A stretch of 32,000 bases of DNA, from the NCBI RefSeq assembly GCF_000008465.1, contig NC_006512.1, forward strand, positions 90,001 to 122,000, written 5' to 3'. This stretch comes from Idiomarina loihiensis L2TR (lineage in GTDB: Bacteria > Pseudomonadota > Gammaproteobacteria > Enterobacterales > Alteromonadaceae). The position numbers and the translations under genes are program-made. Positions 1,111 to 16,379 of the stretch are shown one piece after another (position 1 is the stretch's first letter; each line of letters starts with the position of its first letter). Below the pieces are notes generated by a model that had not been told where the DNA came from, made no database searches, and saw nothing but the letters and a program-made list of their open reading frames with translations.

Positions 1111-1148
1111 AACGATCTCCCACTGTGGGTTTCGTCCATACTCCTCTG

Positions 1149-1189
1149 CTTAAATGAACCGCCGTTGACAGTTCATTTAAGCTTTTGTG
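1149..1189. other. Perfect 11-bp inverted repeat (cttaaatgaac / gttcatttaag, 11-nt loop) followed by CTTTTGTG
   Basis: Read directly. It lies between the small ORF at 1242-1469 and the LpxH-like start at 1110. The stem is AT-rich. Confidence 0.3.
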
Positions 1190-1241
1190 ACATCGGCAGA
1201 CTATTTGCGACAAGATCAGCTTTATTATGAATGGCATAAAG

Positions 1242-1469: not shown

Positions 1470-1518
1470 GCTTATTTTAATTAAGTTACTGAGTAACGGT
1501 AAAAACTTGGAGGTTTAA

Positions 1519-1809: not shown

Positions 1810-1824
1810 AGGGTTTAGGGGTGG

Positions 1825-2064
1825 CTACTTGCTGGCTGTTAGCCACCCTGCAAAAAATGCTGCGGCAAGTGCCCCGGCAATAATAGCGATAAACCATGCA
1901 GCTCCAGCCCGCTTTCCTAAATTAATTGTCCAGCCAAGCATTGGATAAAATTTCGGCACCCAGCTGCGCGTATCTTTCTTGCTAAAGTATATGCCGAGCC
2001 ACAAAGGCCGTGACCAGTTGCTTTCGTCATGCCATTCCTGAGAATTGATTTCTTCTTGAGTCAT
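1825..2064 (-). CDS. Small membrane protein, DUF5808-like (79 aa)
   Basis: SD AGGAGG lies upstream of ATG 2064. Trp-rich N-terminus and a C-terminal TM helix (AAWFIAIIAGALAAAFFAGWL). The family name is from memory. Confidence 0.55.
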   Translation of the reverse strand: MTQEEINSQEWHDESNWSRPLWLGIYFSKKDTRSWVPKFYPMLGWTINLGKRAGAAWFIAIIAGALAAAFFAGWLTASK

Positions 2065-2178
2065 AAAGGCCTCCTAAGAACAAATAGTAGTCGATTTTTC
2101 CGGGAAATCACGGGGTGAGTTGATATCTCCCGCAACTCAATGTAATTTTCAGTCCATTCTCACTAATCTGAAGCCATT

Positions 2179-2427
2179 ATGTCCTCTTTGTTAAACTGGA
2201 TGAAAACTCTGGGCACGATACCTCTAGCCCTTTGCGTTCTTTTCGTTGTATTTCTGCCTTCAATTTTATTCGCGGCATTTATTGTCTGGATTTTCGACTT
2301 GCTGTTTTTAGACCTGGCATGGATGTCCTGGTCAACTTTTTGGTGGATACTGGGCGTTTGGGTTGTGACCATGATCATTGCGTTAGCTGGTCAAGCCGAC
2401 AAGATTCTGTTTGGTACGCCGAAGTAG
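2179..2427 (+). CDS. Small hydrophobic membrane protein (82 aa, about 3 TM helices)
   Basis: ORF with strongly hydrophobic content. No convincing SD. Confidence 0.4.
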   Translation: MSSLLNWMKTLGTIPLALCVLFVVFLPSILFAAFIVWIFDLLFLDLAWMSWSTFWWILGVWVVTMIIALAGQADKILFGTPK

Positions 2428-2428
2428 T

Positions 2429-4399
2429 CTAATCTTTAGGAACATAATATTCTCGCGATTGATACAAAATAGACGGCAACATAGCGAATGCTCTTATTTT
2501 TTTTAACTGCTCGGGGCTTAGCGGATCCTCTATCGGCTCTTGCTTATCGACTTCCGGGATATAGCGATAATGCTCAGTTGGCTTATTTACCCTAAGAACG
2601 GTTAAAGTCTCACCTTCCAACCATCCGTAGTTGTCGCCAAACTGCATCATTGCCCGGTTTCCGGGAGCTTTATCTGTGCGGCTTAAATCCTGCCCTACTG
2701 TTGGCAAATAGGCGGAAACACCTGCTAAAGAGAGTAATGTGGGAGCTAAATCAATTTGGCTTGCTGTCGACTTAATGGTTCGGGGTTCAAGATCTGCACC
2801 TAAAATCAGTCCTGGTATGTGGAATTTATTGACAGGGATTAAGTCGTCACCGTAAACCCGGGTATCATGATCGGCCACGACCAAAAATAAGGTGTTATCC
2901 CAGTAGTTACTTTGTCTGGCTTTTCTAAAGAACTCTCCGAGTGCGTAATCCGCATATTTAACCGCATTATTCACGGTATTTTTAGGCTCCTCATGAAGCT
3001 TTATAGTGTTATCGGGGAACTTAAACGGTTCGTGATTAGAGGAGCTAAAAGCCAGGGTGAAGGTGGGGTGTTTAGCTGTGTTGACTACTAATCGCTGATG
3101 TAGTTTATTAAATAAATCTTCATCGCTAACACCCCAGCTCCCAGTAAAATTCGGTGTTTTGTAATCATCTTGATCGATAATCGATTGAAAGCCATTACCG
3201 ACAAAAAAGTTGGCCATATTGTCAAAGTGAGCCTGGCCGCCGTAGATAAACTCGGTGAAATAACCCTGCCGGGATAAAACATCGGCAAGTGTAAAAAACT
3301 GACGCTGTGAGTTTGAAAGTTTCACGGTGCTTCGTGCTCTAGTCGGTAAAAAACCTGAAACAACAGCCTCTATACCGCGTACTGAACGGGTTCCTGTTGC
3401 GTAAAGCCGCTCAAACCACCAGCCATCTGATTTCAGTCGCTCCAGATTAGGTGTTACCGGTACGCCACCAAGTGATTCGACAAATGTCGCACCCAGGCTT
3501 TCTTCTAAAATAATGACAATATTAAGAGGTTTTTCTCTTTTCCGTGTCGCAGGCTGAAAGTGTACTGTGGGGTAATCTTTGTAAGGAAACTCATATTCTT
3601 TAAGGTGAGTGTTCTGCTTAACTGTTGTTAAAACTTCATCGGTTTTCATATCACCGTATATAAGATTTGCTTTTGATTCGTGTTTTAAATTGTAAAGTGC
3701 ATACTCTAAGGTATAAGTGGAATTCAGAATCAATGAATTGACCATGGCATCAGAGGTAACCGCGAAAAATGCTGGGTTAGCCGGGCGATGCGCTAGTGTT
3801 GAACGGATGCCGAGTACTACCATCACTAGAAGAAGAGGGTAAACACCCAACAAATACCGACGGCGCATTGGTTCTGGTTGAAATCGTTGAGCAATAATAC
3901 GGGCTATGCGCTTTAAAATGTATATGGTTAGTAAAGTAGAAGCCGCACCTATCATTAACCAAGTTTTGAATCCGTTCCATAGTGTGGAAAATACTTCGGC
4001 GGGATACTCTAGGTATTCAAAGAATAAGCGGTTGGGTCTAGTGTCGTACTGAGCCAAAAAAGCCGGTGTTGAAATCTCCATGAACCATAAAATGATGAAG
4101 CATAATGTAAACCACAGTAAAGCAGCACGATACCAGAGACTCTGGACTCGATATCGGTTCATAAAAGGAATAAAAAGTGGGAACGCAAGAAATGGGATGA
4201 TAATAAAATAGCTTACTTGCATAAGATCGGCTCGTAAGCCCAGAATGAAAAACTCTCCTAACCCTATAGCTTCGCTGACACGGTTGCTGTACAGAGAGAA
4301 GTGAAGAAAGCGGAATCCACTAAGCAGAGCGAGCGCAGAAACAAAGAAAAGAAATATTGGCCGCAATAATTCTGCAATTGGTAAAATTGGTTTGATCAT
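2429..4399 (-). CDS. LTA-synthase / phosphoglycerol-transferase family membrane enzyme (alkaline-phosphatase superfamily, MdoB/OpgB/LtaS-like)
   Basis: The N-terminal ~220 aa are multi-TM. A sulfatase-type domain follows (NIVIILEESLGATF, YATGTRSVRG, SSSNHEPF, LVVADHD). The ORF track starts at a TTG (4441). I prefer ATG 4399 because the regulatory boxes and a possible -10 lie at 4440-4483. Confidence 0.85.
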   Translation of the reverse strand: MIKPILPIAELLRPIFLFFVSALALLSGFRFLHFSLYSNRVSEAIGLGEFFILGLRADLMQVSYFIIIPFLAFPLFIPFMNRYRVQSLWYRAALLWFTLCFIILWFMEISTPAFLAQYDTRPNRLFFEYLEYPAEVFSTLWNGFKTWLMIGAASTLLTIYILKRIARIIAQRFQPEPMRRRYLLGVYPLLLVMVVLGIRSTLAHRPANPAFFAVTSDAMVNSLILNSTYTLEYALYNLKHESKANLIYGDMKTDEVLTTVKQNTHLKEYEFPYKDYPTVHFQPATRKREKPLNIVIILEESLGATFVESLGGVPVTPNLERLKSDGWWFERLYATGTRSVRGIEAVVSGFLPTRARSTVKLSNSQRQFFTLADVLSRQGYFTEFIYGGQAHFDNMANFFVGNGFQSIIDQDDYKTPNFTGSWGVSDEDLFNKLHQRLVVNTAKHPTFTLAFSSSNHEPFKFPDNTIKLHEEPKNTVNNAVKYADYALGEFFRKARQSNYWDNTLFLVVADHDTRVYGDDLIPVNKFHIPGLILGADLEPRTIKSTASQIDLAPTLLSLAGVSAYLPTVGQDLSRTDKAPGNRAMMQFGDNYGWLEGETLTVLRVNKPTEHYRYIPEVDKQEPIEDPLSPEQLKKIRAFAMLPSILYQSREYYVPKD

Positions 4400-4455
4400 A
4401 AATATTGTACTAGTTCTTTGTTGCTGCTTAATAAAAGGCAAACTAGCAGCGCATT

Positions 4456-4483
4456 CTTAAGTAAGCCTTAAGAAACATTTAAT
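4456..4483. promoter_or_regulatory. PmrA/BasR-box-like site 1: CTTAAG-taagc-CTTAAG-aaaca-TTTAAT (three YTTAAK hexamers at 11-bp phase)
   Basis: Read directly in the divergent intergenic region between the LTA-synthase-like gene and dgkA. CTTAAG is self-complementary, so the orientation is ambiguous. Confidence 0.6.
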
Positions 4484-4522
4484 AAGTTATTTAAAGATGT
4501 TGATGGCTAAGAGGGCGATAGA

Positions 4523-4882
4523 ATGAAACCGGGAAAGAAAGGCTTAGAACGAATTTGGTACGCAACTTTCAATTCGCTGCGAGGCCTGAAAAGTGCGTGG
4601 CAGTACGAGGCGGCCTTTCGACAGGAAGCACTAATGTGTTTGATTTTGGTACCTGTCGCTTTTTACGTTGAAGCATCGTTGGCTGAGCGGCTGCTATTGC
4701 TTGCAAGTCTTTTTATTCTGCTCATTACTGAGCTTCTTAATTCGGCGGTAGAAGCCGTTGTTGACCGTGTTGGGGCAGAGTTCCACGAGCTTAGTGGAAG
4801 GTCGAAAGACTTAGCCTCTGCAGCGGTATTTTTTGCCCTACTGTTTATGCTCGTGGTCTGGGTTAGCATTCTGTTTTTTTGA
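4523..4882 (+). CDS. dgkA: Diacylglycerol kinase
   Basis: 119 aa, colinear with E. coli DgkA (AAFRQE ... ELLNSAVEAVVDRVG.E.HELSGR.KD..SAAV). SD AGAGGG upstream. Confidence 0.9.
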   Translation: MKPGKKGLERIWYATFNSLRGLKSAWQYEAAFRQEALMCLILVPVAFYVEASLAERLLLLASLFILLITELLNSAVEAVVDRVGAEFHELSGRSKDLASAAVFFALLFMLVVWVSILFF

Positions 4883-4931
4883 TTTATTGGGTATGTTCAG
4901 GAACTTTCTACAAACTAACGCTCCACTATTC

Positions 4932-4974
4932 CTTAATAGCCCTTAAGGTTCTCTTAAGTAAACGCTCATACAGT
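4932..4974 (+). promoter_or_regulatory. PmrA/BasR-box-like site 2 plus -10: CTTAAT-agcc-CTTAAG-gttct-CTTAAG, then 10 nt, then TACAGT (4969-4974)
   Basis: Read directly. It lies 53 nt upstream of ATG 5027. The box-to-(-10) spacing is the same as at site 3. Confidence 0.6.
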
Positions 4975-5026
4975 AGCAGCATGAATGATTCTGTCAGCGA
5001 TGTCCGCTGGAAAAGGAGTAATCGTC

Positions 5027-5629
5027 ATGCGCTACCAATGGGTTACAACAACACAGGCTAACCGGTCGTCGGTTGAGGCTTTTATCTGTGAACGCTACTG
5101 GCTCAATTTTAATGCCTGCCTTAGTCAACTGCCCGAGGTGCTGCTAGCCCTGTACGAAAACGACACTCTGGTTGCGGCATGTGGTATTCAGTTTGCCGAA
5201 CAAAAGCCGTTGTTTTCAGAGTTCTATCTCGATAAGCCATTGCAACAATACTCTGTTGGCAACAAGCCGATGCCAGCGCTTGAAAATATAGCTGAAGTCG
5301 GTTCAATGGCCGCTCTGGCACCGCCTTATTTACCTTTGCTGTTTCAGGCGGTTATCGATTCTCTCTTGTCGAGAGGAATAACCGCTGTTGTCTTCACTGC
5401 AACCCGGGCTCTGCAAAAGTATTTCGCGAGACAAGGCATAGAATTAACCCTTCTAGCCGAAGCTAAGAAAAACGCTTTGCCCGAGTCTGTCCGCGATATA
5501 TGGGGCAATTACTATGAGCACACACCGCTTGTGCTGGGTGGTTGGCTGAGCCAGGGGCATGCGTTATTCACTAAGCAACGCCCTGCGTCTGTTTTCAGGT
5601 CGACAGTAGGGGCTGCGTCATGCCTGTAA
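5027..5629 (+). CDS. Thermostable-hemolysin family protein (delta-VPH-like; predicted GNAT-fold acyltransferase-like)
   Basis: About 200 aa. Resembles the Vibrio delta-VPH / Pfam T_hemolysin family from memory (VEAFI.ERY...F.A.L....P.LLAL ... IAEVGSMAA). SD AAGGAG at 5013-5018 favours ATG 5027 over the ORF-track start at 4985. The stop overlaps the next gene by 10 nt. Confidence 0.65.
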   Translation: MRYQWVTTTQANRSSVEAFICERYWLNFNACLSQLPEVLLALYENDTLVAACGIQFAEQKPLFSEFYLDKPLQQYSVGNKPMPALENIAEVGSMAALAPPYLPLLFQAVIDSLLSRGITAVVFTATRALQKYFARQGIELTLLAEAKKNALPESVRDIWGNYYEHTPLVLGGWLSQGHALFTKQRPASVFRSTVGAASCL

Positions 5630-6969
5630 CTGAGTTTTTTGACCAACTGCAAGCGCACGCAAAAAGTAATCCAAATCAGCTCTCTGTAAGTGACGAGCAA
5701 ACGGCTATTACTTACCACACGTTACTTAGTCGGGTGGCCGCCCGACGCGACTATTACCTGCAACAGCCAGACCCTGTTGTTCTTATCGACAAACCCAACT
5801 CCATTGATTGGGTTATAGATGACCTGGCGCTGCTGTGGGCGGGCAAAGTCAGTGTCCCGGTACCACCATTTTTTACTGAACAGCAGAAGCAGCATTTGGT
5901 TCAGCAAACCTTGTCGTCGCCGCAATTGCCGTCGATGACAGCTAAAATCACCTATACTTCAGGAACAACCGGTGAACCTAAAGGAGTTTGTCTTGCTGCC
6001 GCGTCTCAGATGGAAACAGTGAAAGCACTGGCGGAGCGTCTGGGAGCGGTGAAGGTTAAGCGGCATATGGTACTGATGCCGCTTGCTGTATTGCTGGAAA
6101 ATATTGCCGGGGTGTATCTATCGCTTTGGCTAGGTAATGAAGTGGTTCTGGTTGGTTCAGAAACTCTGGGGCTGAAAGGATCATCATCACTCTGTGCAGA
6201 GTCTTTTTTTGCTGCGCTACGGCTCTACCAACCGGATAGCCTAATTCTAACGCCTGCACTGTTGGCGGCTATTGTATCGGGTGTTGAGCAAGGTTTGTTA
6301 GATAGTCAGCAGTTCAAGTTGTTAGCGATAGGAGGCGCAAAATTACCCCTGCCGTTGGAGTCAAAAGCATTGGCATTAGGCCTGCCGCTGGTTCACGGCT
6401 ATGGATTGTCAGAGTTTTGTTCTGTTGTCGCATTGAACTCACCCGACCGTCCGGTTGTCGCTTCGGTTGGCAAACCGCTACCTCATGCACAGGTGACTAT
6501 TGATGAGGGCGAAGTTGTGGTCTCCGGCAACTGCATGCTGGGTTACCTGGGTGAGCCAGACTCCTGGTATCCGAAAAGGATAAGAACTGGCGACCTTGGC
6601 TCATGGGATGCTGAGGGCAACCTGCGCATTGGCGGGCGTATTAAGAATATTATTATTACGGCGTTTGGGCGCAATGTTGACCCTGAGTGGCCAGAAGCCC
6701 TGTTGAGCCTGCAGCCCAACATCCGACAAGCGGCCATTTGGGGCTCGGAAGAGTTACCCATTACCGCGCTGCTATATTCTCCTGAAAACATCGACTCTGT
6801 TGCCGCTCGTGTTAAAGCGGTTAATCAGCAGCTTCCTGACTACGCGCAAATCGAGCGGTATTTTCTTATCACTGAACCTTTTTCTCAGGCCAACCAACAG
6901 TTGACCGGAACCGGACGTCTTCGTCGTCAGCAAATTGCTAACGACTATTCCGAGCTATTAACGCTATAG
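5620..6969 (+). CDS. AMP-dependent synthetase/ligase (ANL adenylating enzyme), short form (449 aa)
   Basis: Core motifs TYTSGTTGEPKGV, HGYGLSEF and RTGDLGSWDAEGNLRIGGRIKN are present. Its start overlaps the upstream stop. Confidence 0.85.
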   Translation: MPVTEFFDQLQAHAKSNPNQLSVSDEQTAITYHTLLSRVAARRDYYLQQPDPVVLIDKPNSIDWVIDDLALLWAGKVSVPVPPFFTEQQKQHLVQQTLSSPQLPSMTAKITYTSGTTGEPKGVCLAAASQMETVKALAERLGAVKVKRHMVLMPLAVLLENIAGVYLSLWLGNEVVLVGSETLGLKGSSSLCAESFFAALRLYQPDSLILTPALLAAIVSGVEQGLLDSQQFKLLAIGGAKLPLPLESKALALGLPLVHGYGLSEFCSVVALNSPDRPVVASVGKPLPHAQVTIDEGEVVVSGNCMLGYLGEPDSWYPKRIRTGDLGSWDAEGNLRIGGRIKNIIITAFGRNVDPEWPEALLSLQPNIRQAAIWGSEELPITALLYSPENIDSVAARVKAVNQQLPDYAQIERYFLITEPFSQANQQLTGTGRLRRQQIANDYSELLTL

Positions 6970-6978
6970 AGGTATTTT

Positions 6979-7656
6979 ATGTCCTTTTTTAACACTTTAT
7001 GTGAGCAGACCCAGACAGAACAGCAGTATTTGCTGAGCGCAAGACCTATTCAACAGGCATTGCAGGGCGATATTTCATTGCCTCGTTATCAGGCTTTTTT
7101 AAGTCAGGCTTACCATCATGTAAAGCATACGGTTCCATTGCTGATGCGCTGTGGCAGCCGCCTGTCGCTAAACGATGAGTGGTTACGCAAAGCGGTTATT
7201 GAATACATTGGCGAAGAATATGGTCATGAGCGCTGGATACTCAACGACCTCGATGCCGCTGGCGGCGATGTGGATATGGTGCAGAACTCAGAGCCACATA
7301 CACCGACACAGGCCATGGTGTCTTTGGTTTATAACGCGATAGACAATGTGCATCCTACGGCGTTCTTTGGCATGGCACACGTACTGGAAGGAACCAGCGT
7401 GAAGCTGGCAACGGCCGCCGCACATAAAATCCAGAGCACACTTGGCTTGCCGGAGTCAGCTTTTAGTTATTTGCTGTCCCACGGAGACCTGGATCAGGAT
7501 CACGTTCAGTTTTTTGAGCAACTGATGAACCGAGTTGAAGACGCCGACGCGCAGCGCGCCATTATTCAAACCGCTAAACACGTTTATCGCTTGTATGGTG
7601 ATATGTTCAGAGCTTTGCCGGAGCTTGCGGGTGAACAACCGGAAGCGAGTGTATGA
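6979..7656 (+). CDS. Heme-oxygenase-like di-iron oxidase/oxygenase (HDO; iron-containing redox enzyme / TenA-PqqC-CADD-like fold)
   Basis: 225 aa, all-helical. Candidate ligand set: E80-x2-H83 (EEYGHE), E137 (AHVLEGTS), H168-x3-D172-x2-H175 (HGDLDQDH). SD AGAGG upstream. Confidence 0.65.
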   Translation: MSFFNTLCEQTQTEQQYLLSARPIQQALQGDISLPRYQAFLSQAYHHVKHTVPLLMRCGSRLSLNDEWLRKAVIEYIGEEYGHERWILNDLDAAGGDVDMVQNSEPHTPTQAMVSLVYNAIDNVHPTAFFGMAHVLEGTSVKLATAAAHKIQSTLGLPESAFSYLLSHGDLDQDHVQFFEQLMNRVEDADAQRAIIQTAKHVYRLYGDMFRALPELAGEQPEASV

Positions 7657-8450
7657 GCAAAATAAACTGGAAATCACAAAGCATAGTACTGACGGGCGCA
7701 TGCGGAGGGCTAGGTATTCAACTTGCCGAGCTGCTTAGTGCTAAAGGAGCAAAACTTTTATTATTAGGACGCTCAGAGCCCGAGCTAACTGCACTTGCCG
7801 CGCATTTGCAGCAGGACTGTTTTGTGTTGGATCTCTGTGCGTCCGATGCAATAAGCCATTTGCACCAGTTTATTGAGCAGAAAAACCTGCGCATTACCGG
7901 TCTTATCAATAATGCAGCAACCACACATGAAGGACTGCTTGAAGACGCAACCTCTGAGGACATTCAGCGTGTTATCGACACCAACCTAACCGTGCCCGTG
8001 GCTCTTATTCATAGGCTACTGCCTCGACTAAGAGCAAATCATGGCTGGGTCATGAATATTGGCTCTGTATTTGGCGCCATTGGTTTTCCGGGGCAGGCAC
8101 TTTATTGCGCCAGCAAGTTTGGCCTACGAGGGTTTAGTGAGGCGCTGCAGCGAGAGTTGCAACCAGAGGACGTACGAGTGCTTTACTGCGCCCCCAGAGC
8201 AATACAGACGCAACTCAATAACGGCGTTATCAGTCGTTTAAACCAGCAGTTGAAAACCTCGGCTGATGCGCCGGAATGGGTTGCGCAACAAATCGTTCAT
8301 CAAATTGAGCAACAACAACCACTGAAAACCCTGGGCTGGCCGGAAAAGTTATTTGCCCGGCTTAACGGGCTGTTACCGGAACTGGTTAACCGCAGTATGA
8401 AAAAGCCACGAATTTTATTACACCAATTGATCAAGGAAAAATCGCTATGA
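7653..8450 (+). CDS. SDR-family oxidoreductase
   Basis: TGACGGLG Rossmann motif, NNAA, and catalytic YCASK. ATGA overlap with the upstream gene. Confidence 0.85.
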   Translation: MSKINWKSQSIVLTGACGGLGIQLAELLSAKGAKLLLLGRSEPELTALAAHLQQDCFVLDLCASDAISHLHQFIEQKNLRITGLINNAATTHEGLLEDATSEDIQRVIDTNLTVPVALIHRLLPRLRANHGWVMNIGSVFGAIGFPGQALYCASKFGLRGFSEALQRELQPEDVRVLYCAPRAIQTQLNNGVISRLNQQLKTSADAPEWVAQQIVHQIEQQQPLKTLGWPEKLFARLNGLLPELVNRSMKKPRILLHQLIKEKSL

Positions 8451-9100
8451 AACCAATAACTGTATTAGTTACCTCAATGGCGTTAGCTGTAACGCTTTAC
8501 CTGTCGCCGGTTGCTGCAGAAGAAGTCAGCCAGTTGCTGAGCGTTCAGCAACGCTGGGCTGAAGTGAATTATAAGATCGAGGGCGACGAGCAGCTAAAAG
8601 CGTTTGAAGAACTGTCGGCGCAAGCTGAAAAATGGGTTGAGCAAGAGCCCGATAACGCCGAAGCGCATATTTGGCTGGGTATTATTAAAAGTACTCAGGC
8701 AGGTGCTGAAGGTGGATTGAGTGCGCTGGGTTTGGCAAAAGACGCGAGAAAATCTCTGCAAAGAGCATTGCAGCTTGACCCTCAAGCTTTGCAGGGTTCT
8801 GCTTATGCAAGTCTCGGTACGCTATATTACAAAGTTCCCGGCTGGCCGTTTGGTTTTGGTGACGACGACAAAGCCAGTGAATTATTGCAACGCGCATTGG
8901 AAATAAACCCCAACGGTATTGACCCTAACTACTTTTACGCCGACTATCTGTATGAACAGGGCAAGTACTCAGATGCAAGAAAATACGCAGAGCACGCGCT
9001 GAGCGCTGAAGTGCGGGAACAAAGACCATTAGCTGATGCGGAGCGACGCAAAGAGGTTCAGGCGTTACTGAAAAAGATTCATCACGAGCTGAAGAGGTAA
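8447..9100 (+). CDS. Secreted TPR-repeat protein
   Basis: Signal peptide (MKPITVLVTSMALAVTLYLSPVAA/EE). TPR-like helices (AEAHIWLGII..., ALQLDP, ALEINPN, YADYLYEQGKYSDARKYAEHAL). ATGA overlap with the SDR gene. Confidence 0.75.
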   Translation: MKPITVLVTSMALAVTLYLSPVAAEEVSQLLSVQQRWAEVNYKIEGDEQLKAFEELSAQAEKWVEQEPDNAEAHIWLGIIKSTQAGAEGGLSALGLAKDARKSLQRALQLDPQALQGSAYASLGTLYYKVPGWPFGFGDDDKASELLQRALEINPNGIDPNYFYADYLYEQGKYSDARKYAEHALSAEVREQRPLADAERRKEVQALLKKIHHELKR

Positions 9101-9108
9101 TTGGCCGC

Positions 9109-9771
9109 ATGGAGTTGTTACTGGTTGAAGATGATGCGATGTTAGGACAGGCTGTGGAACTCGGCTTGTCCGAGCGTCAGTTCCTGGTTCAGCGGGTACG
9201 CACGGGAGCGGCGGCTATTAGCGAGTTAAACCGAACTCACTACGATGCTGTTGTTCTGGATTTGGGGTTGCCGGATTTAGACGGAACCCGCGTTTTGGCC
9301 AGCCTCAGAAAAAAGGGTATGACGTTGCCTGTATTGGTTCTGACAGCGCGAGATCAATCCAGTGAAATTGTAAAGCAGCTGGATAACGGCGCTGACGACT
9401 ATATGATCAAACCGTTCGATATGAACGAACTGGCTGCCCGTCTGCGCGCGCTGGTTCGTCGCCAGCGCGGCTATGCTTCCCCGGAGTTAAAAGTGGGTGA
9501 TATTGTTTTGGACGACGCTAACCATAGCGTTGTTGTTGAAGGGCTGGCTGTTAACCTCTCCCGACGCGAATTTGAGCTACTGAAAGCATTAATGTCCGCA
9601 CCGGAACGTGTGCACAGCCGTGACAAGCTCGAGCAGGTTGTGTTTCAGAATGAAGCTCAGGTAGAGAGTAACGCGCTGGAGGTTCATGTGCATAATTTAC
9701 GTAAAAAGCTGGGCCATAAAGAGTGGATTCAGACTATTCGCGGTATTGGTTACCGACTGCAATGCAATTAG
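9109..9771 (+). CDS. OmpR-family response regulator, PmrA/BasR/QseB-like
   Basis: Receiver motifs EDD, VVLDLGLPDLDG, LVLTARD and YMIKPF. Winged-helix C-terminus (LEVHVHNLRKKLG ... IRGIGYRL). Colinear with Salmonella PmrA as I remember it. Confidence 0.9.
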   Translation: MELLLVEDDAMLGQAVELGLSERQFLVQRVRTGAAAISELNRTHYDAVVLDLGLPDLDGTRVLASLRKKGMTLPVLVLTARDQSSEIVKQLDNGADDYMIKPFDMNELAARLRALVRRQRGYASPELKVGDIVLDDANHSVVVEGLAVNLSRREFELLKALMSAPERVHSRDKLEQVVFQNEAQVESNALEVHVHNLRKKLGHKEWIQTIRGIGYRLQCN

Positions 9772-11105
9772 TTAAGCGTGTAAGGCACAAGCTAAACTCT
9801 ATTCGTAGGCGTATTCTTGTCGCTGTATCTCTTTTGTACCTTGTCAGTTCAACCTTGTCAGCAGTATGGATTTACTTTGAAGTGAGCCATGAGGTTGATG
9901 AACTCTTTGATGCGGAAATGCTGCAGCAGGCAAAAACCTTATCTGCATTTATGTCCGTGAATTCCGAGCGCTTGCCTGAAGCCGGGGTGATCATTGAATC
10001 AATCGGTGCGCACAACTATGAAGATAAGCTGTCTTATAGGATAGAAAACACTGAAGAGCTGCTTCTTATGCAAACTGAAGGCGCCCCGGATGCCAGTGCT
10101 TTTGAGTTTATCCCGGGTTTTTCAGTTAAGAGAGTGAAAGACGAACTTTGGCATGCATTTGGCTTAGAGAACGCAACTGGACAGCGAATACTAATGTTGC
10201 AGGAAGACGGCTTTCGTTCTGAACTTAGAATGGATTTAACCGTCGATACAGTTATTCCGATATTACTGATTTTACCTTTTATGCTTTGGTTGGGATGGTG
10301 GACCATCAACCGGAACTTCTCCAGCTTTAATCGCTTGGCTGGTGAGTTAAGGCGTAAACGTGCTGACGACTACACCAACTTTGTTGAAGATAACGACAGA
10401 GAGGAAGTTGCATTAGTAAAACGTTCTTTAAATCACTACATAAATCGTATAGAGCAAACGTTTTTACGTGAGAAGCGTTTTTCCGCAGATGCAGCTCATG
10501 AGCTTAGAACTCCTTTGGCCAGTTTGAAGGCTCAGATTCAGAGTCGACTTGGGAGCGCTACCTCAGAGCAGCAGAATGAGCTTCAGCCTCTGCTAGACAG
10601 TACCGAACGGTTGGTTAAATTGGTTGAAAGCTTATTGCAGTTGTCTAAAGCTGAGCTGCCACCTGAACAGCTAAAGCAAGTGAATGTTGCCAGTGTTCTC
10701 AGGCAGGTACTTGCCGACCAGTACGTCGCTGCGGAATCGAAGGGGCTGAGCTACCATGCACAACTTCCTACTGTGTTTCAGCAAACAAGTGATGAAAGTT
10801 ACCTCTATCTTTTGTTTGCTAACGCACTGGATAACGCAATTAAGTATGCGGTTCCGGGCTCTCATATCGGAATCGAAGTCACCGAAAACCAGATATTTGT
10901 TTGTAACCGCGTCGCTGCAGACCATGTTATTGATATTGACCGAATTACCGAGCGGTTTTATCGCGGAAAACAGCTAGATGTTGAGGGCTCCGGACTGGGT
11001 CTGAGTATTGTGAGGAATTTGGCCGAGCAACTCGGCGTTCAGATTAACTTTCGACATATCGATGATGAGTTCTGTTTTATTGTAACTTTTGATACGGATC
11101 AATAA
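9762..11105 (+). CDS. Sensor histidine kinase (PmrB/QseC-like architecture), G1 box degenerate
   Basis: ATG 9762 overlaps the RR stop by 10 nt. Two TM segments flank a ~150-aa periplasmic region. H-box FSADAAHELRTPL, N-box LDNAIKYA, G2 GSGLGLSIV. The DxGxG position reads NRVAA. Confidence 0.85.
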   Translation: MQLVKRVRHKLNSIRRRILVAVSLLYLVSSTLSAVWIYFEVSHEVDELFDAEMLQQAKTLSAFMSVNSERLPEAGVIIESIGAHNYEDKLSYRIENTEELLLMQTEGAPDASAFEFIPGFSVKRVKDELWHAFGLENATGQRILMLQEDGFRSELRMDLTVDTVIPILLILPFMLWLGWWTINRNFSSFNRLAGELRRKRADDYTNFVEDNDREEVALVKRSLNHYINRIEQTFLREKRFSADAAHELRTPLASLKAQIQSRLGSATSEQQNELQPLLDSTERLVKLVESLLQLSKAELPPEQLKQVNVASVLRQVLADQYVAAESKGLSYHAQLPTVFQQTSDESYLYLLFANALDNAIKYAVPGSHIGIEVTENQIFVCNRVAADHVIDIDRITERFYRGKQLDVEGSGLGLSIVRNLAEQLGVQINFRHIDDEFCFIVTFDTDQ

Positions 11106-11136
11106 GCGGCTGTATTCCCGGCGTTGAGCGCATAAG

Positions 11137-11169
11137 CTTAATATTTCCTTAAGGTAGTGTGCCTATACT
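11137..11169 (+). promoter_or_regulatory. PmrA/BasR-box-like site 3 plus -10: CTTAAT-atttc-CTTAAG, then 10 nt, then TATACT (11164-11169)
   Basis: Read directly. It lies 30 nt upstream of the cytochrome b561 ATG (SD GGAG at about 11190). Confidence 0.65.
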
Positions 11170-11198
11170 CAAGTCATTAAACACCTTTTGGAGTTGTT

Positions 11199-11708
11199 AT
11201 GGATATTCGATATTCGGGTTTGTCGCGAATAAACCACTGGTTCAGCGTGATCTTTGTGGTTGTCATGCTGACTCTGGGTTATATGATGTTTTTTGCAAAT
11301 GACAGAGCCTCTGGCTCATACGCCGAAGCCGCCCATATTGGCGTTGGATTTTTTGCCTTCTGGTTTTTGCTCTGGCGCACAATCTACCGTTTAAAAATGG
11401 GTTTCCCTGCGCACAAAAAACAAGATAGGCGCCACGAATTTGCCCGAGTTGTTCACTATTTGATTCTACTCGGGCTGACACTATTGATTATTACCGGTCC
11501 CTTGTATTTGTTTACCGAAAATGAAGGACTGGCGGTGTTTGACTGGTTTACCGTTAATCTTGATCTCACTGCTCTCAGTATTGTTCACGAACCGGCGGAA
11601 GAAGTGCATAAAATTACCGGCCTTTACGTACTGCCGGTTTTGCTTGTTGTGCATATTGCGGGTGCTGTTGTTACCTACTTGTCAGATGAGGGAGCAGCCC
11701 GATCATAA
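11199..11708 (+). CDS. Cytochrome b561 family protein (CybB-like, 4 TM, di-heme)
   Basis: 169 aa. N-terminal RINHW motif. Conserved His residues in TM helices (AAHIGVG, VHY, VVHIAG). Confidence 0.7.
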   Translation: MDIRYSGLSRINHWFSVIFVVVMLTLGYMMFFANDRASGSYAEAAHIGVGFFAFWFLLWRTIYRLKMGFPAHKKQDRRHEFARVVHYLILLGLTLLIITGPLYLFTENEGLAVFDWFTVNLDLTALSIVHEPAEEVHKITGLYVLPVLLVVHIAGAVVTYLSDEGAARS

Positions 11709-12750
11709 AGCTGAATTGGAAATAAATAGCGCAGATTGCTGCTGGCGCAGCTCTTCCGGGACAATACCCAGCCAGCGTTTGCAGGCGCGTCGAAAGTTGT
11801 TGGGGTTACTGTACCCCAGCTTCTGCGCAAGCTCGACATTGCTGTAGGGGTGTTTTTGCAGCAGGTTCAGCAGTTTGTGTAGACGCACCAGGTCATATAT
11901 TTGCTGAAAGCTGTAGCCATGACTGGCCAGCAGACGTTTGCACGAGGAAAGGCTAATGCCAATTTCAGCCGCCAACTCGGTTAGCGAGGCGTCATGGCCC
12001 GTTTCGAGCTGATAATCCAGCCACTTAAAAACGCTTAGCATGACAGAAGCTCGCGCCTGTGTCTGATGCTGCATCTGACAAAAGCTAAGTGCCTGATGAT
12101 ATTGGGCTAAGTTGCGCTCAGGCGAATGTTCCTGAAGCTGTTCCGCCGGAATAGAGAGTCCACAAATAGGGCGTGAACTCACCTTTTTTACCCATTTTTT
12201 CCAGGTGGGTAAGGGCGAAATATCATCAGGCAGAGCAACATGCCACTGGTTAATAGCTAAGCCTCGAGCTCTGCCCAGCATTAAAAGTATTGCTACACCA
12301 ATTTTGCAATTGGCAGAATAGCAGAGTTGATTCATTTTCCCTGACAGCCCCTCAACCGGAATAAAGTCCAGTTGTAAGTCGTTGGGTAGGGGTAAATAAA
12401 AAGGGCTGTAGCAGGCTTTGAAAGCGCGACAAATGAATAAGCGCCTGCTTTAGTGTTTTTGCGTGAACGGTCAGGTCAATCAGTGGGTTAAGTCTGTCAC
12501 TGAACAGTGTTTCTACAACCAATTGCCATAAGTGCGGGTCGTTAATTTTTTCTTCAGCAGACGCCAGTAACAACAGCATTTCATGATCGGTGAGCCGAAA
12601 GTTGTTTATCTGCAGTTTTTGTTCAGATAATGAGGTGCCCCTGAAAAGCTCCGAAGAGGAAATGCCGCGCCTCTCGGCAAGCGGCAGCAGCGCTCGTATA
12701 AAGGGTTTACCAAGCAAACGGCGTTGGTCGTTAGTTGGCCAGAGGCGCAT
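11703..12750 (-). pseudogene. AraC-family transcriptional regulator split by a frameshift (N-terminal ligand-binding-type part 12352-12750; C-terminal HTH part 11703-12335)
   Basis: The two adjacent ORFs are in different frames. The upstream one is an AraC N-terminal-type domain. The downstream one carries the AraC HTH (LAAEIGISLSSCKRLLASHGYSFQQI ... LGYSNPNNFRRACKRWLGIVPEELR). Both frames are open across 12355-12449. SD GAGGAG lies before ATG 12750. Confidence 0.6.
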
Positions 12751-13636
12751 AGTGAGTCATCTCCTCAACTTGCGTGTGTAATGCGGTGATTGCATCAACA
12801 GCCGAGAGTTCTTCAACGCGGTGAGTATGCACTTCCACACTCATGTAATTGGGTAACTCAAGTTCGGAGTTTAGGTTCTGAGCTATAACCTTCATTAACC
12901 TGTCCGCCTGAGACAAGCGAGTTTGCGGAAGCAGTATTAAGAAATGGTCACTGTGTTCCCGACACAGACAGTCCTGAGGCCTTAGCAGTAACACCATTAA
13001 CTCGCTGGCCTGATGCAGGAGTTCGTCTCCGGCTTTTGTACCCATTTCATGATTATACTGGGCGAAGTTTTTGAAATTAACGCTAACCAATACAGTCGAC
13101 TCTGCATCAGTACTGTTTTGTAACGCTATTTCCCGTTCAACCAGCTTGATAAAATAAGGGGTGGTGTATAGCGAGGTTAAAGGGTCGACCCACTGGTGAG
13201 ACCGAAGGTTCTTTTCGCGTACCATAAGTTGTCGCGACAGCATTTTGTTTTCACGCCGCCATTCAGCTGCGGCAAAACTAATGATAATAAGCCCCACCGG
13301 AAGCGGAAAGGACTCCAGCCAGCTTAATAACCGCAGGGCATCGGGATAGCGAAAAAATTCATCTAGTACGTCCAGCGTCATGGAAAAAATAAGTAATAGA
13401 CCACCGCTGTAAAAGAGGTTGGTTACATTACCCCGAGGCCGGTCAGTAACCATAAATATGACAATTAAAATGGTCAGGAACAGGGTCGAGCCCTCACCAA
13501 GAATGTCCAGCGGATCAACGATTTCATAGGGTTTAACGACACCCAGTTGACTGCTAAGCAGCAAACAAAGCAGAACCACTACGGCAATGAGCAGAACTCG
13601 CCAGTTGCTGATATAGCGTAAATTAATCAATTGCAT
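12731..13636 (-). CDS. Membrane protein with degenerate GGDEF domain (HSDHF in place of GGDEF; RxxD I-site retained)
   Basis: About 4-5 N-terminal TM helices. The GGDEF-domain scaffold is present (DPLTSLYTTPYF ... GDELL ... RPQDCLCREHSDHF). SD GGAGAC favours ATG 13636 over 13660. The stop overlaps the AraC start by 20 nt. Confidence 0.8.
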   Translation of the reverse strand: MQLINLRYISNWRVLLIAVVVLLCLLLSSQLGVVKPYEIVDPLDILGEGSTLFLTILIVIFMVTDRPRGNVTNLFYSGGLLLIFSMTLDVLDEFFRYPDALRLLSWLESFPLPVGLIIISFAAAEWRRENKMLSRQLMVREKNLRSHQWVDPLTSLYTTPYFIKLVEREIALQNSTDAESTVLVSVNFKNFAQYNHEMGTKAGDELLHQASELMVLLLRPQDCLCREHSDHFLILLPQTRLSQADRLMKVIAQNLNSELELPNYMSVEVHTHRVEELSAVDAITALHTQVEEMTHYAPLAN

Positions 13637-13672
13637 TGAAGTCTCCGCATATCTCGGCATTAGAACAAAGAC

Positions 13673-13706
13673 ACTTTAACCTCCGGTTGTGACAGTTTGG
13701 TGACGC
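13673..13706 (-). promoter_or_regulatory. Pho-box-like site (GCGTCAC-CAAA-CTGTCAC on the minus strand, 13706 to 13689), then 10 nt, then TAAAGT (13678 to 13673)
   Basis: Read directly in the divergent region between the GGDEF gene and the TonB-receptor/phytase operon. The second half-site is a perfect CTGTCAC. The first matches 5 of 7. Confidence 0.45.
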
Positions 13707-13832
13707 CGGTTTCGCTTTCTGAGCTTAACTGACCCGCATCAAAAGAGCTCATAAGCGGGCGATATGCATCCTCATATTGTCACTTTTTGCTTTTAAGGTA
13801 TGTCGCATCAATCAAAAAACGACAGGGTTTGA

Positions 13833-16379
13833 ATGATTATGAAAAAGACATATTTAGCTTGGCTTATTGCCGTTTCATGTGGTGCTACATCCCCACTTAT
13901 GGCTCAGGAAACGCAGGACCAGAGCGCAGATAAAACAGCCGAAGAAAAGCGCATTGAAGAAGTGCTTACTATTGGCTACAGCGACTCAATAAAACGTGCA
14001 GTGCAAGAGCAGCGAGAGTCCAGCGGTATTATCAATGTTCTGAAGAAAGATGACATGGGTAAGCTGCAGGACGACAGCGTTAGTGATGCGTTGCAGCGCA
14101 TTCCTGGTCTATCTGTAGAACGCGACCAGGGTGAAGGACGCTTTATTCGCATTCGTGGTTTAGCCCCCGATTTAAACTCGGTTTCATACAATGGCACCTC
14201 GCTGGCCGCTCCTGAAGCCGGACGCCGAGCCGTGGCGCTAGATGTTATTCCGGCGGATTTGCTGGAATCGGTTGTGGTTAATAAAACCCTGACGCCGGAT
14301 ATCTCAGCAGGCAGCCTTGGCGGTAATATTGAACTGCAAAGCATGACGGCCTTTGACCGTGAGGGCTCGTTCTACTCTTTTACTGCTGATGTTGGTTATA
14401 ACGAGCAGGCCAGCGAAACGAACCCAAAAGTTTCGGGTGTTGTCAGCAACACCTTTGATGTCGGCGATAAAGCGGACAGTTTTGGTATCGCCTTTGCCGG
14501 TAGTTATCAGGATCGCTCATTTACTACCGACAACGTTGAAACCGGCGGAAACTGGGACTTGGATGAACCGGGCCTGGAAGAGTTTGAGCAACGCGCCTAT
14601 TCGGTTACCCGTGAGCGAACCGGCTTAGCCTTAAACCTGGACTATCGTCCTTCCGATGATTCTGAATTCTACCTGCGCTCGCTGTACAGTGAGTTTGCGG
14701 ATACCGAAATTCGTCAGGGTATTGTGACTGAATTTTCTGATCCAATTGGCGCAGAAGCTAGTGCTGGCGGCGAAATTGTTCGTGAGCTTAAAGACCGTAA
14801 AGAAACCCAGGAAATTACAGCGATTGTGCTGGGCACTAAGCAGAAATTTGATGACTGGCATGTCACTTTGGAGGCAGGTACCAGTAAAGCCAGCGAAGAT
14901 CAGCCTTTTGCTATTGGTGGAGCCAAGTTTACGCAGGAATTTGACGAAGGCCTGGGCTACTCAGGTCTGAAACGCTTGCAACTGAACGCGCCAGATACTG
15001 CATATCAGGCGTCAGAATATGAAATTGATGAAGTGGAAGTGAGTGACGCCTACACCGAAGAGACTGAAAAGAACGTTAAGCTGGATGTGGCTTATGACTG
15101 GTTACAACCCAGCTATCAGGTTACTTTTAAAGGCGGTGTTAAGTTAAGCCAACGCGAAAATTCCGCAGAAGAAAACATCTTTATTATGAAAGACTTTGCT
15201 GACTTGGGTGTTACCGGATTAACGCTTGCTGACTACGAAACGTCGTCAAATGTTGAGTATGGCCTGGACAGATTTGGCCCCGGCGCTTCCGCCGGCAAAC
15301 TTTGGGACATGATTAATACCTTCGAGTTACAAAACTTCCGGGATGAAGTTGAATCGAGAATCGCCTCTTACGAAATTGATGAAGACATCAGTGCCGGTTA
15401 CCTGATGGCCGACATGGGCTTCGGTAAGTGGCAGGTTATTGCTGGCGCGCGGTATGAACATGAGGAGCGCGAAGGACGCGGTAACCGTTATGACGACGAA
15501 CTGGAAACCTTTACACCAGTTTCGGATAAATTCAGCGATGCAAACTGGCTTCCTAGTGTGGTGACGCGCTACGACTTAAGTAATGACACTATTATTCGTG
15601 CGGCATACAGCACCGGCCTTGTCAGACCTAACTTTGAACAGGTTAGATCCAGCTATTACCTGGAAAATGACGATGGCGACCTGAAAGCTGAATTCGGTAA
15701 CCCGGATCTTGAACCATTAACCACGCAGAACCTCGATTTTGGTATTGAGCATTACGATGAAACCTTGGGTGTTATTTCCGCCATGGCCTTTTACAAAGAC
15801 ATTAAAAACTTTGTCTATGAAGCCGATGTTGCCGGTCGCCCGGGTTACGAAAACTTCGATGAAGCCGTCACTTATATCAACGGTGATGACGCTTACGTCT
15901 ACGGTTTAGAAGTCAACTTTGTGCATCAGGTGTCTGGTTTTAATAACTGGCTGGATAACTTCTTAATCAATACCAACCTGACTTTCACTGACTCGGAAGC
16001 AACGGTTGACTGGATTGACGATGGTCAGCTTGTGTCACGCGACATTACGCTGCCGAGCCAGTCTGATACCACAGCAAACTTTGCGCTTGGCTACGAAGTT
16101 TATGATGTCAGCTTACGTTTGGCAGCGAACTATAAGTCAAAGTATCTGGCTGAGCTTGGTGACGTTGAAGACAGCCGTTATGACATTTATGAAGACGACA
16201 ATCTGACTCTGGACTTTTCCGCGAAATGGCTCATTAACGACCATGTCAGCCTGAGCTTTGCGGCCAACAACATTACCGATGAACCCTACTATGTTTACAC
16301 CGGCCAGAAGCGATACAACGCGCAGTACGAAAGCTATGGCCGCAGCTTCACTCTGGGTGTGCAGCTAATTAACTGGTAA
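13833..16379 (+). CDS. TonB-dependent outer-membrane receptor
   Basis: 848 aa. Signal peptide (..SPLMA/QE). Plug-domain motifs (DALQRIPGLSVERDQGEGRFIRIRGL). C-terminal aromatic terminus (..GVQLINW). Confidence 0.9.
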   Translation: MIMKKTYLAWLIAVSCGATSPLMAQETQDQSADKTAEEKRIEEVLTIGYSDSIKRAVQEQRESSGIINVLKKDDMGKLQDDSVSDALQRIPGLSVERDQGEGRFIRIRGLAPDLNSVSYNGTSLAAPEAGRRAVALDVIPADLLESVVVNKTLTPDISAGSLGGNIELQSMTAFDREGSFYSFTADVGYNEQASETNPKVSGVVSNTFDVGDKADSFGIAFAGSYQDRSFTTDNVETGGNWDLDEPGLEEFEQRAYSVTRERTGLALNLDYRPSDDSEFYLRSLYSEFADTEIRQGIVTEFSDPIGAEASAGGEIVRELKDRKETQEITAIVLGTKQKFDDWHVTLEAGTSKASEDQPFAIGGAKFTQEFDEGLGYSGLKRLQLNAPDTAYQASEYEIDEVEVSDAYTEETEKNVKLDVAYDWLQPSYQVTFKGGVKLSQRENSAEENIFIMKDFADLGVTGLTLADYETSSNVEYGLDRFGPGASAGKLWDMINTFELQNFRDEVESRIASYEIDEDISAGYLMADMGFGKWQVIAGARYEHEEREGRGNRYDDELETFTPVSDKFSDANWLPSVVTRYDLSNDTIIRAAYSTGLVRPNFEQVRSSYYLENDDGDLKAEFGNPDLEPLTTQNLDFGIEHYDETLGVISAMAFYKDIKNFVYEADVAGRPGYENFDEAVTYINGDDAYVYGLEVNFVHQVSGFNNWLDNFLINTNLTFTDSEATVDWIDDGQLVSRDITLPSQSDTTANFALGYEVYDVSLRLAANYKSKYLAELGDVEDSRYDIYEDDNLTLDFSAKWLINDHVSLSFAANNITDEPYYVYTGQKRYNAQYESYGRSFTLGVQLINW

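Follow-up and report, generated by a model that had tools for sequence, protein, structure and literature searches.

Seven co-directional genes (g1–g7, Table 1) are located on the + strand at 5027–11105 of the window analysed here, i.e., the 32,000 nucleotides at positions 90,001–122,000 of contig NC_006512.1 of Idiomarina loihiensis L2TR. According to the open reading frame (ORF) listing, with all junctions read directly, they form an operon in which five genes for predicted enzymes and a periplasmic protein (g1–g5, in the following the core) are followed by those for a two-component regulatory system (g6 and g7). Adjacent genes overlap by 10 nt (g1/g2, ATGCCTGTAA; g6/g7, ATGCAATTAG) or by ATGA (g3/g4 and g4/g5), or are separated by gaps of 9 nt (g2/g3) and 8 nt (g5/g6). 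Both the tight packing on one strand and the six junction types had been described in an earlier, sequence-only reading of this DNA; the ORF listing agrees with the former and the sequence matches the latter exactly. Likewise, the families predicted there for g1–g5 and the OmpR-type two-component system were all matched by Pfam profile search.

For g1, the start at 5027 is preferred over 4985, since a GGAG motif is present 7 nt upstream and the orthologues begin at the same residue. A terminator scan revealed none inside the operon or directly after it, and nothing above the shuffled expectation. As stated in the sequence-only reading, no carrier protein is encoded: a PP-binding (carrier) domain was not found by Pfam in any of the seven proteins, and no free + strand ORF of at least 60 aa lies between the genes.

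Table 1 Genes and regulatory features at the g1–g7 locus (positions refer to the window)
Feature	Position	Strand	Assignment and evidence
g1	5027-5629	+	T_hemolysin, PF12261, E 5e-50 (Pfam)
g2	5620-6969	+	Short ANL adenylate-forming enzyme, 449 aa; PF00501 (AMP-binding) and AMP-binding_C_3 (Pfam)
g3	6979-7656	+	Heme-oxygenase-like di-metal enzyme (HDO); Haem_oxygenas_2, PF14518, E 5e-34 (Pfam)
g4	7653-8450	+	Classical short-chain dehydrogenase/reductase (SDR); adh_short, E 1e-39 (Pfam)
g5	8447-9100	+	Periplasmic tetratricopeptide repeat (TPR) protein, TatT/BstC lipid-binding type; TPR (Pfam)
g6	9109-9771	+	OmpR/PhoB-type response regulator, PmrA/QseB-like; Response_reg and Trans_reg_C (Pfam)
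g7	9762-11105	+	Sensor histidine kinase with two transmembrane (TM) segments; HisKA and HATPase_c, weak 2CSK_N (Pfam)
Regulator box CTTAAGGTTCTCTTAAG	4942-4958	+	PmrA/BqsR-type direct repeat 5' of g1; exact CTTAAG-N5-CTTAAG
-10-like hexamer TACAGT	4969-4974	+	10 nt after the 4942-4958 box
Regulator box CTTAATATTTCCTTAAG	11137-11153	+	5' of cytochrome b561 gene; TATACT at 11164-11169
Two overlapping regulator boxes	4456-4472, 4467-4483	+	Between LtaS-like gene and dgkA; TAAGTT at 4483-4488
LtaS-like (sulfatase-family) membrane transferase	2429-4399	-	PF00884, E 2e-46; weak phosphoglycerol transferase, LtaS and OpgB matches
dgkA, diacylglycerol kinase	4523-4882	+	PF01219, E 2e-32; boxes 5' of gene
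Cytochrome b561 family membrane protein	11199-11708	+	PF01292, E 2e-18; own box 5' of gene

Conservation and genomic context of the core

The order g1–g5 is identical in all 43 loci examined, which are distributed over Alpha-, Beta- and Gammaproteobacteria, and in most of them the genes for the response regulator and the kinase are next after the core. Synteny of the five genes in other genomes, named as a criterion in the sequence-only reading, was thus observed in three proteobacterial classes. A genome scan with the g1 clade (one genome per species), which reached the Idiomarinaceae clade only, detected this clade in 27 Idiomarina and Pseudidiomarina species, with the order g1–g5 kept in 27/27 and the regulator and kinase genes adjacent to the core in 23 of them; the nearest g1 locus is that of I. 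rhizosphaerae (94%). In four Pseudidiomarina species and on two plasmids, no two-component system is linked to the core.

The wider context was obtained from HDO homologues and from tblastn searches against plasmids and chromids. Homologues of the HDO with 57–60% identity are encoded in Pseudomonas, Azotobacter, Aromatoleum, Thiobacillus and Pelagibaculum, and the full seven-gene order was found in 3/3 contexts inspected. Core matches by tblastn were obtained for Pseudoalteromonas, Aeromonas, Alteromonas, Variovorax, Vibrio, Salinivibrio, Photobacterium, Pantoea, a Citrobacter freundii plasmid and Novosphingobium; the annotated plasmid and chromid regions all carry the same five genes. Membership of the chromosomal copies in V. 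cholerae and V. parahaemolyticus is based on published locus tags and on the name of PDB entry 3LXQ. The sequence-only reading had covered neither this wide distribution and the prior mentions of the cluster nor the LtaS-like, dgkA and cytochrome b561 genes.

In Novosphingobium (locus L040, 6627–8663) and Pseudoalteromonas (locus L043, 7522–9681), ANL and HDO are fused into one polypeptide, which implies consecutive action on one substrate. In the same Novosphingobium operon (10109–14601), the two-component system has given way to genes for an S-adenosylmethionine (SAM) methyltransferase, an extracytoplasmic function (ECF) sigma factor, FecR and a TonB-dependent receptor, and the TTAAG box described below is absent from this locus.

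A cytochrome b561 gene stands beside the core in four lineages, including a V. parahaemolyticus plasmid, Pantoea deleyi and Salinivibrio (b561/b-type). Further genes near the core encode a VIT-family iron exporter in two lineages (Pantoea, Variovorax), a cupredoxin together with FTR1 in another two (Pseudoalteromonas, Alteromonas), and a TonB-dependent siderophore receptor as well as a PepSY protein in Alteromonas. On the Alteromonas macleodii plasmid (locus L045, 3356–6633), a second box precedes GT2-DedA(VTT)-GT39 (ArnC/ArnT-like) genes directly upstream of the core, and genes for regulator, kinase, cupredoxin and FTR1 are located further upstream.

HDOs include N-oxygenases. The recurrence of iron-related neighbours (VIT, cupredoxin with FTR1, siderophore receptor with PepSY, ECF sigma/FecR/TonB receptor) and of cytochrome b561 beside the core, as well as a regulator box of the type used by the iron-responsive PmrA and BqsR, could indicate a metabolite for metal handling, i.e., a lipophilic chelator such as an N-oxygenated acyl amide formed by an HDO N-oxygenase, a GNAT enzyme and the ANL enzyme. 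An iron-sensing two-component system would induce this compound, and g5 and cytochrome b561 would act on it in the periplasm. However, most loci contain no dedicated receptor, ABC importer or exporter; inspection by eye revealed no convincing Fur box 5' of g1, a formal Fur-box scan not having been made; nothing marks g3 as an N-oxygenase, its nearest characterised relatives being of the CADD type; and the iron-related neighbours could be other targets of an iron-sensing regulator. Such a metabolite is thus considered improbable.

Regulator boxes and the encoded two-component system

The direct repeat upstream of g1 (CTTAAG-GTTCT-CTTAAG) may also be written TTAAG-N6-TTAAG, a motif which we take to be the box of PmrA and of the iron-responsive BqsR regulators. 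Within the window, the pattern YTTAAK-N5-YTTAAK is restricted to three intergenic regions (4456–4483, 4942–4958 and 11137–11153), with 6 matches vs 0.11 expected when palindromic sites are counted on both strands; 0/100 shuffles reached 6. The box preceding the cytochrome b561 gene is kept at the same place in the related loci L001 and L002, those preceding dgkA in the related loci L001, L003 and L005. An equivalent box is present 67–196 nt 5' of the g1 orthologue in about 40 of the 43 loci, e.g., in Aromatoleum and Variovorax among Betaproteobacteria and in Pseudomonas, Pelagibaculum, Aeromonas, Pseudoalteromonas, Alteromonas, Vibrio and Salinivibrio among Gammaproteobacteria, and represents essentially the sole occurrence within each 17–20 kb locus. 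Of 25 sites checked, 18 have a TAnnnT hexamer exactly 10 nt past the box, among them all three of the window.

A promoter-like element had been proposed for 4932–4974 by the sequence-only reading. The sigma-70 consensus scan made no call at this interval and found nothing above the shuffled expectation; what the interval does contain is the CTTAAG-N5-CTTAAG repeat followed by TACAGT. Lack of a sigma-70 call for TACAGT may be explained by an activator-dependent promoter without -35 element, which would escape such a scan. Judged by their conservation, box and spaced hexamer probably constitute the phylogenetic footprint of a promoter of this kind, and from this footprint autoregulation of the operon by its encoded regulator g6 would be the most economical reading.

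A different arrangement was observed in the Idiomarina sp. UBA6142 lineage (locus L005), where boxes at 2620–2636 and 4801–4817 precede the regulator gene and g1, respectively. The two-component system is located upstream of the core there, and its regulator and kinase are 38% and 27% identical to g6 and g7 of the window.

The best NCBIfam model for g6 is PmrA (NF007928, 219.4 bits, cut-off 330), with QseB at 195.8 bits (cut-off 345), and that for g7 is QseC (202.7 bits, cut-off 475), with PmrB (NF008025) at 123.7 bits (cut-off 314). Since these scores are below the equivalog cut-offs, g6 and g7 are not regarded as orthologues of PmrA, PmrB, QseB or QseC. Thus, the description as a PmrAB-like, autoregulated system in the sequence-only reading is retained at the family level (PmrA as best model, PmrA-type boxes) and abandoned at that of orthology. 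The kinase g7 has TM segments at residues 17–39 and 157–183, and its periplasmic domain contains H-E-V-D-E just past TM1; HExxE is kept in most orthologues and is a motif generic to 2CSK_N kinases. Iron is sensed by PmrB and BqsS.

Several traits are shared with the pmrCAB operon of Salmonella and Escherichia coli (PmrAB, also BasRS) and with BqsRS of Pseudomonas aeruginosa: (i) an OmpR-type regulator and a two-TM kinase encoded at the operon 3' end, (ii) a direct-repeat box CTTAAG-N5-CTTAAG overlapping the -35 position, (iii) H-E-x-x-E after TM1 of the kinase, and (iv) a probable regulon with dgkA beside the gene for a membrane transferase of the alkaline-phosphatase superfamily in Idiomarina or with ArnC/ArnT-like genes in Alteromonas. 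In contrast, the upstream position occupied by eptA/pmrC in pmrCAB is taken here by the GNAT-ANL-HDO-SDR-TPR set. The earlier analogy with pmrC accordingly applies to position only, since g1–g5 are devoid of EptA_B_N and Sulfatase domains. The transferase encoded nearby is LtaS/OpgB-like and has no EptA N-terminal domain either; it is this gene and dgkA, not g1–g5, that resemble a PmrA-controlled head-group transfer module.

Predicted activities of the core proteins

Searches with g1 against Pfam yielded PF12261 alone at E <= 0.01, with Autoind_synth unmatched, and neither the single sequence nor a 63-member family profile had a match among PDB sequences, N-acylhomoserine lactone (AHL) synthases included. 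The AlphaFold2 model of g1 (pLDDT 89.9), however, has the AHL synthases TofI, LasI, RpaI, MesI, BjaI and EsaI as top Foldseek PDB matches (E 6e-7 to 8e-5, TM-score 0.57–0.61), and chains of the N-acyl amino acid synthase (NAS) FeeM (2G0B) occupy ranks 10, 16, 25, 28 and 44 (TM-score 0.52–0.57). No signal peptide, hydrophobic N-terminus or hydrophobic segment was found in g1. Because of this confidently modelled fold and the missing signal peptide, g1 is predicted to be a cytoplasmic, acyl-amide-forming GNAT of the LuxI/FeeM type and not a pore-forming toxin.

The family name and description of PF12261, together with reports that the cloned genes of V. cholerae and V. parahaemolyticus confer haemolysis (PMC4046660, PMC6262041), would suggest a thermostable pore-forming haemolysin with unrelated neighbours. 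This explanation, already disfavoured, is highly improbable in view of the globular enzyme fold, the absence of membrane-directed segments from g1 and its translational coupling to the ANL gene, always followed by the same four genes. In addition, Serratia 39006 has a pair of g1 and ANL genes together with those for a TauD dioxygenase and an MFS exporter, and expression of the pair is raised 184-fold by an rsmA mutation (PMC4046660), which shows g1 and ANL to be a portable biosynthetic pair. The haemolysis conferred by the cloned V. cholerae homologue dth in spite of its lacking a signal peptide (PMC4046660, citing Fallarino 2002) would fit production of a surfactant lipid.

A C-terminal Cys of g1 was considered as a built-in acyl carrier and dropped: the TGC codon arises from the overlap with the ATG of g2 (TCATGCCTGTAA), and the residue is taken to be a by-product of translational coupling. 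Cys is present among the last five residues in 16 of 63 T_hemolysin family members.

Parallels to g1 and g2 are provided by two types of acyl-amide-forming systems. In the CoA-dependent LuxI-type systems of RpaI, BjaI and MesI, a small GNAT-like acyl-amide synthase likewise works with a ligase of the adenylate-forming type; the present system differs by the lack of an Autoind_synth match and of any LuxR-type gene in the locus, by having a two-component system instead, and by the added HDO, SDR and periplasmic TPR protein. FeeM/NAS clusters share, in this order, an acyl-amide synthase (with the fold match of g1 to FeeM), an adenylating enzyme and oxidative tailoring, and their products are surfactant-like lipids, such that a comparable product could explain the "haemolysin" phenotype here. 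They employ ThiF and a nitroreductase in place of ANL, HDO and SDR, as in the NasY-ThiF-nitroreductase route to N-acyl dehydrotyrosines (PMC12479983), neither a two-component system nor a periplasmic binder is dedicated to them, and g1 belongs to PF12261 rather than to the NAS families.

In light of these folds, one may speculate that the operon makes its own signal: a diffusible acyl amide or lipid formed by g1–g4 would be caught in the periplasm by g5, shown to g7 and amplified via g6 in a quorum-sensing-like autoinduction. The AHL synthases closest to g1 in fold include CoA-dependent ones working with a ligase, the biosynthetic genes are kept together with periplasmic binder and sensor/regulator across three classes, a box before an operon encoding its own regulator would provide positive feedback, and the ECF sigma/FecR/TonB-receptor replacement in Novosphingobium is a device sensing an extracellular ligand. 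However, H-E-x-x-E of g7 is a generic 2CSK_N motif typical of metal- and stress-sensing PmrB/QseC-type kinases, and the set of genes driven by the same regulator (dgkA, cytochrome b561, ArnT-like genes) resembles a stress regulon. Since, moreover, plasmids and four Pseudidiomarina species carry the core with no two-component system linked to it and g1 falls outside Pfam Autoind_synth, a self-made signal is regarded as conceivable but rather unlikely.

The ANL enzyme g2 possesses the canonical A3, A5, A7 and A8 motifs and, instead of the A10 lysine, an invariant Arg within T-x-(N/T)-G-R-x-(R/K)-R, a motif present in 19/19 aligned orthologues (window 6880–6925). All its NCBIfam matches are far under cut-off, and the nearest PDB entry is the distant MenE (E 3e-19).

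The HDO g3, 100% identical to an Idiomarina loihiensis protein, scores 118 bits against PF14518 (cut-off 28.9). Its ligand residues E80-x2-H83, E137 and H168-x3-D172-x2-H175 are the same in all 17 orthologues compared, which come from three classes, and g3 is accordingly predicted to hold the full 3 His/3 carboxylate di-metal ligand set. PF14518 membership and the pattern E-x2-H ... E ... H-x3-D-x2-H are shared with the HDOs CADD, UndA and 3DDE. A g3 profile matched 3DDE (E 5e-20) and CADD (E 1.5e-5) among PDB sequences; UndA was not detected from g3 by sequence. Compared to the 57–60% identity among true orthologues, 3DDE, which is uncharacterised, is distant from g3; by profile, CADD-type enzymes are the nearest characterised relatives. 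Function of g3 as a CADD-type para-aminobenzoate (pABA) synthase was rejected: Tyr27, the sacrificial tyrosine of CADD (PMC9522330), is not conserved, the CADD segment HTFYVK aligns with non-aromatic residues of g3, and the TIGR04305 score is 27.2 bits (cut-off 200). The g3 subfamily is not mentioned in a 2026 HDO review. For the SDR g4, NCBIfam NF006565 (PRK09072) was matched with 341.7 bits, above the cut-off of 238.

The TPR protein g5 contains an N-terminal hydrophobic, signal-like segment (residues 4–24) which is conserved in the orthologues; together with the TPR domain, this bears out the secreted TPR protein postulated in the sequence-only reading. It is about 50% identical across classes and displays the near-invariant aromatic motif LYYKVPGWPxGFGD...NPxGIDPNYFY. 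Top Foldseek matches of its AlphaFold2 model (pLDDT 90.7) are the TPR protein of a TPAT transporter (8G52) and the sterol binder BstC (7T1S), with TM-scores of 0.62–0.63. Profile search likewise gave BstC as the best natural match (E 4.7e-10), and the Pfam TAtT domain is precomputed on some g5 orthologues. Thus, g5 shares its fold with the periplasmic TPR proteins TatT (TPAT) and BstC. It differs from them by the absence of transporter partner genes, none for tripartite ATP-independent periplasmic (TRAP) transporters (TatP/TatQM), solute-binding proteins, resistance-nodulation-division (RND) transporters or BstA/BstB adjoining the core in the loci examined, and by a score of 54.8 bits against the BstC equivalog NF045602, under the cut-off of 350.

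TatT and BstC belong to uptake and trafficking systems, and g5 might correspondingly capture an exogenous lipid or acid which would be activated by ANL on entry and modified or detoxified by HDO, SDR and GNAT, with the two-component system sensing the compound. Published expression and mutant data are in line with such a role. In fungal-exudate medium, P. alcaligenes AVO110 has the genes for ANL 389-, HDO 373-, SDR 318-, TPR 107- and regulator 38-fold up, and growth in fungal exudate requires its ANL gene ("fadD"); the cluster was interpreted by the authors as one for beta-oxidation, i.e., fatty-acid utilisation (PMC8304167). In V. cholerae, where VCA1111 (dth) adjoins the ANL gene VCA1110, a vca1110 transposon mutant displays an altered odd-chain fatty-acid elongation profile (PMC12208996). 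The operon, however, encodes no acyl-CoA dehydrogenase, hydratase, thiolase or FadL-like porin and no TRAP or RND partner; furthermore, acyl transfer by a GNAT is an anabolic step, and g1 alone yields haemolysis in E. coli (report cited in PMC4046660). Uptake of an exogenous lipid is therefore held to be quite improbable.

Flanking genes and proposed function

Based on their boxes, dgkA and the cytochrome b561 gene are probable members of the regulon; a role of cytochrome b561 as electron supplier or metal reductase is conceivable. For the LtaS-like protein, the periplasmic domain yielded a match to PDB 3LXQ ("uncharacterized protein VP1736") with E 1e-135. Since the V. parahaemolyticus copy of the operon comprises VP1729 (T_hemolysin), VP1731 (HDO) and VP1735 (two-component gene; PMC10469919), VP1736 adjoins it by locus tag, which places the LtaS-like gene next to the cluster in Vibrio, too. 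In many Idiomarinaceae, LtaS-like gene and dgkA are found near the core at varying positions with the linkage kept. In these two groups, Idiomarinaceae and Vibrio, the LtaS-like transferase probably serves the system as an accessory.

The likely true start of the LtaS-like gene, which is divergent from dgkA, is ATG 4399 and not TTG 4441. The G+C content amounts to ~0.50 across 5001–10000 of the window vs 0.42–0.44 at 1001–5000 (including the LtaS-like gene and dgkA); this step between the operon and the upstream 4 kb could hint at different histories of the two parts. Downstream of the cytochrome b561 gene, two ORFs on the - strand (11703–12750; 132 aa, and 210 aa with an AraC-type HTH_18 domain) are 16 nt apart and look like a single AraC-family regulator gene interrupted by a stop or frameshift. 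They are followed on the + strand (13833–18217) by genes for a TonB-dependent receptor and, directly after it, a phytase (PF02333), likely a phytate-utilisation pair. A 633-aa protein with cytochrome c and FTR1 iron-permease domains is encoded at 27640–29541 (+ strand), with katG (KatG, 22099–24276) and two more TonB-dependent receptor genes nearby; none of these genes has a regulator box.

The literature, searched by domain names, Pfam identifier and locus tags, contains passing mentions of the cluster and no assigned product or pathway. Expression of the V. cholerae regulator VCA1105 changes in vivo (PMC4441509). A Pseudoalteromonas carrageenovora plasmid cluster with a QseBC-like system, an iron transporter, two "acyl-CoA synthetases" and a thermostable hemolysin was termed a potential virulence cluster and is conserved in 24 genomes (PMC6262041). 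The cluster itself has hence been remarked before (V. cholerae dth region, "virulence", "beta-oxidation"); as a whole, the operon matches no characterised pathway, as the sequence-only reading had likewise concluded.

That reading had also named V. cholerae AlmEFG under CarRS/VprAB as an analogue. Common to both are an ANL enzyme and an acyltransferase, control by a PmrA-like two-component system and, as proposed below for the present operon, modification of the envelope. Nevertheless, the analogy proved poor: AlmEFG comprises the carrier AlmF and the LpxL-type transferase AlmG, whereas a carrier is lacking here and g1 is a LuxI/FeeM-like GNAT; HDO, SDR and TPR have no counterpart there, and the two-component system is encoded outside the almEFG operon.

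Linkage to the LtaS-like gene and dgkA, ArnT-like genes under the box in Alteromonas and the PmrA/BqsR-type operator point to an envelope/metal stress regulon rather than to housekeeping metabolism. Of the possible functions, the two suggested in the sequence-only reading, modification of an envelope lipid and a lipid signal sensed by its own operon, are still the leading ones. As a tentative proposal, which we favour without considering it established, the operon would be autoregulated, induced by a stress cue and responsible for making a tailored acyl-amide amphiphile for the envelope. Kinase g7 would detect a periplasmic cue, most likely metal- or iron-related envelope stress, upon which regulator g6 would bind the TTAAG-N6-TTAAG box standing in for a -35 element and switch on g1–g7, in Idiomarina also dgkA and cytochrome b561. 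In the cytoplasm, a carboxylate could be activated by the ANL enzyme g2 and converted by the LuxI/FeeM-like GNAT g1 to an amide, yielding a lipoamino-acid-like product; the di-metal HDO g3 may oxidise the intermediate, and the SDR g4 may catalyse a keto/hydroxyl redox step. The hydrophobic product would then be bound by g5 and ferried over the periplasm, its target being either the outer membrane or the LtaS-like transferase, resulting in a remodelled envelope. What the analysis shows is the operon with its conserved gene order and boxes, the folds of the proteins and the metal ligands of g3; substrates, order of steps, destination of the product and inducing cue in this scheme are those we infer. 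The co-induction of the P. alcaligenes genes in fungal-exudate medium and the haemolysis conferred by the V. cholerae g1 homologue also count in favour of the proposal, as do the ANL-HDO fusions. The dgkA gene fits the scheme, since diacylglycerol kinase recycles the diacylglycerol freed by head-group transfer.

Several points weigh against this proposal. No exporter or flippase is encoded in the operon, and g1 is not a member of the LuxI or NAS families at the sequence level. Outside Idiomarinaceae and Vibrio, the core has neither the LtaS-like gene nor dgkA linked to it. The iron-related neighbours in other genomes (VIT, FTR1 with cupredoxin, ECF/FecR/TonB receptor of Novosphingobium) fit a metallophore or a sensed ligand equally, and the LuxI-like fold of g1 combined with the invariable link to a sensor would suit a signal equally.

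A bolder and correspondingly unlikely extension is that the T_hemolysin family represents a third, so far unrecognised class of acyl-amide signal/lipid synthases beside LuxI and NAS, forming with ANL enzyme, di-metal HDO and SDR a new lipid which would be bound in the periplasm by g5 and read by g7 in a pan-proteobacterial circuit. If true, V. cholerae, V. parahaemolyticus, Aeromonas, Pseudoalteromonas and many environmental bacteria would possess a circuit for two-component autoinduction or envelope signalling.

Genes of the g1 family are annotated as haemolysin or virulence genes in thousands of genomes, those of major pathogens included. This annotation is probably misleading, because the evidence points to an acyltransferase within a conserved biosynthetic operon. 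As a well-delimited unit of five enzyme/carrier genes with cognate sensor, regulator and operator, the operon could yield a new lipid or signal as well as a new type of HDO reaction. Its conserved box and fixed promoter geometry make the regulation directly testable, and PmrA/BqsR-type envelope/metal stress regulons would be extended to an unexplored output.

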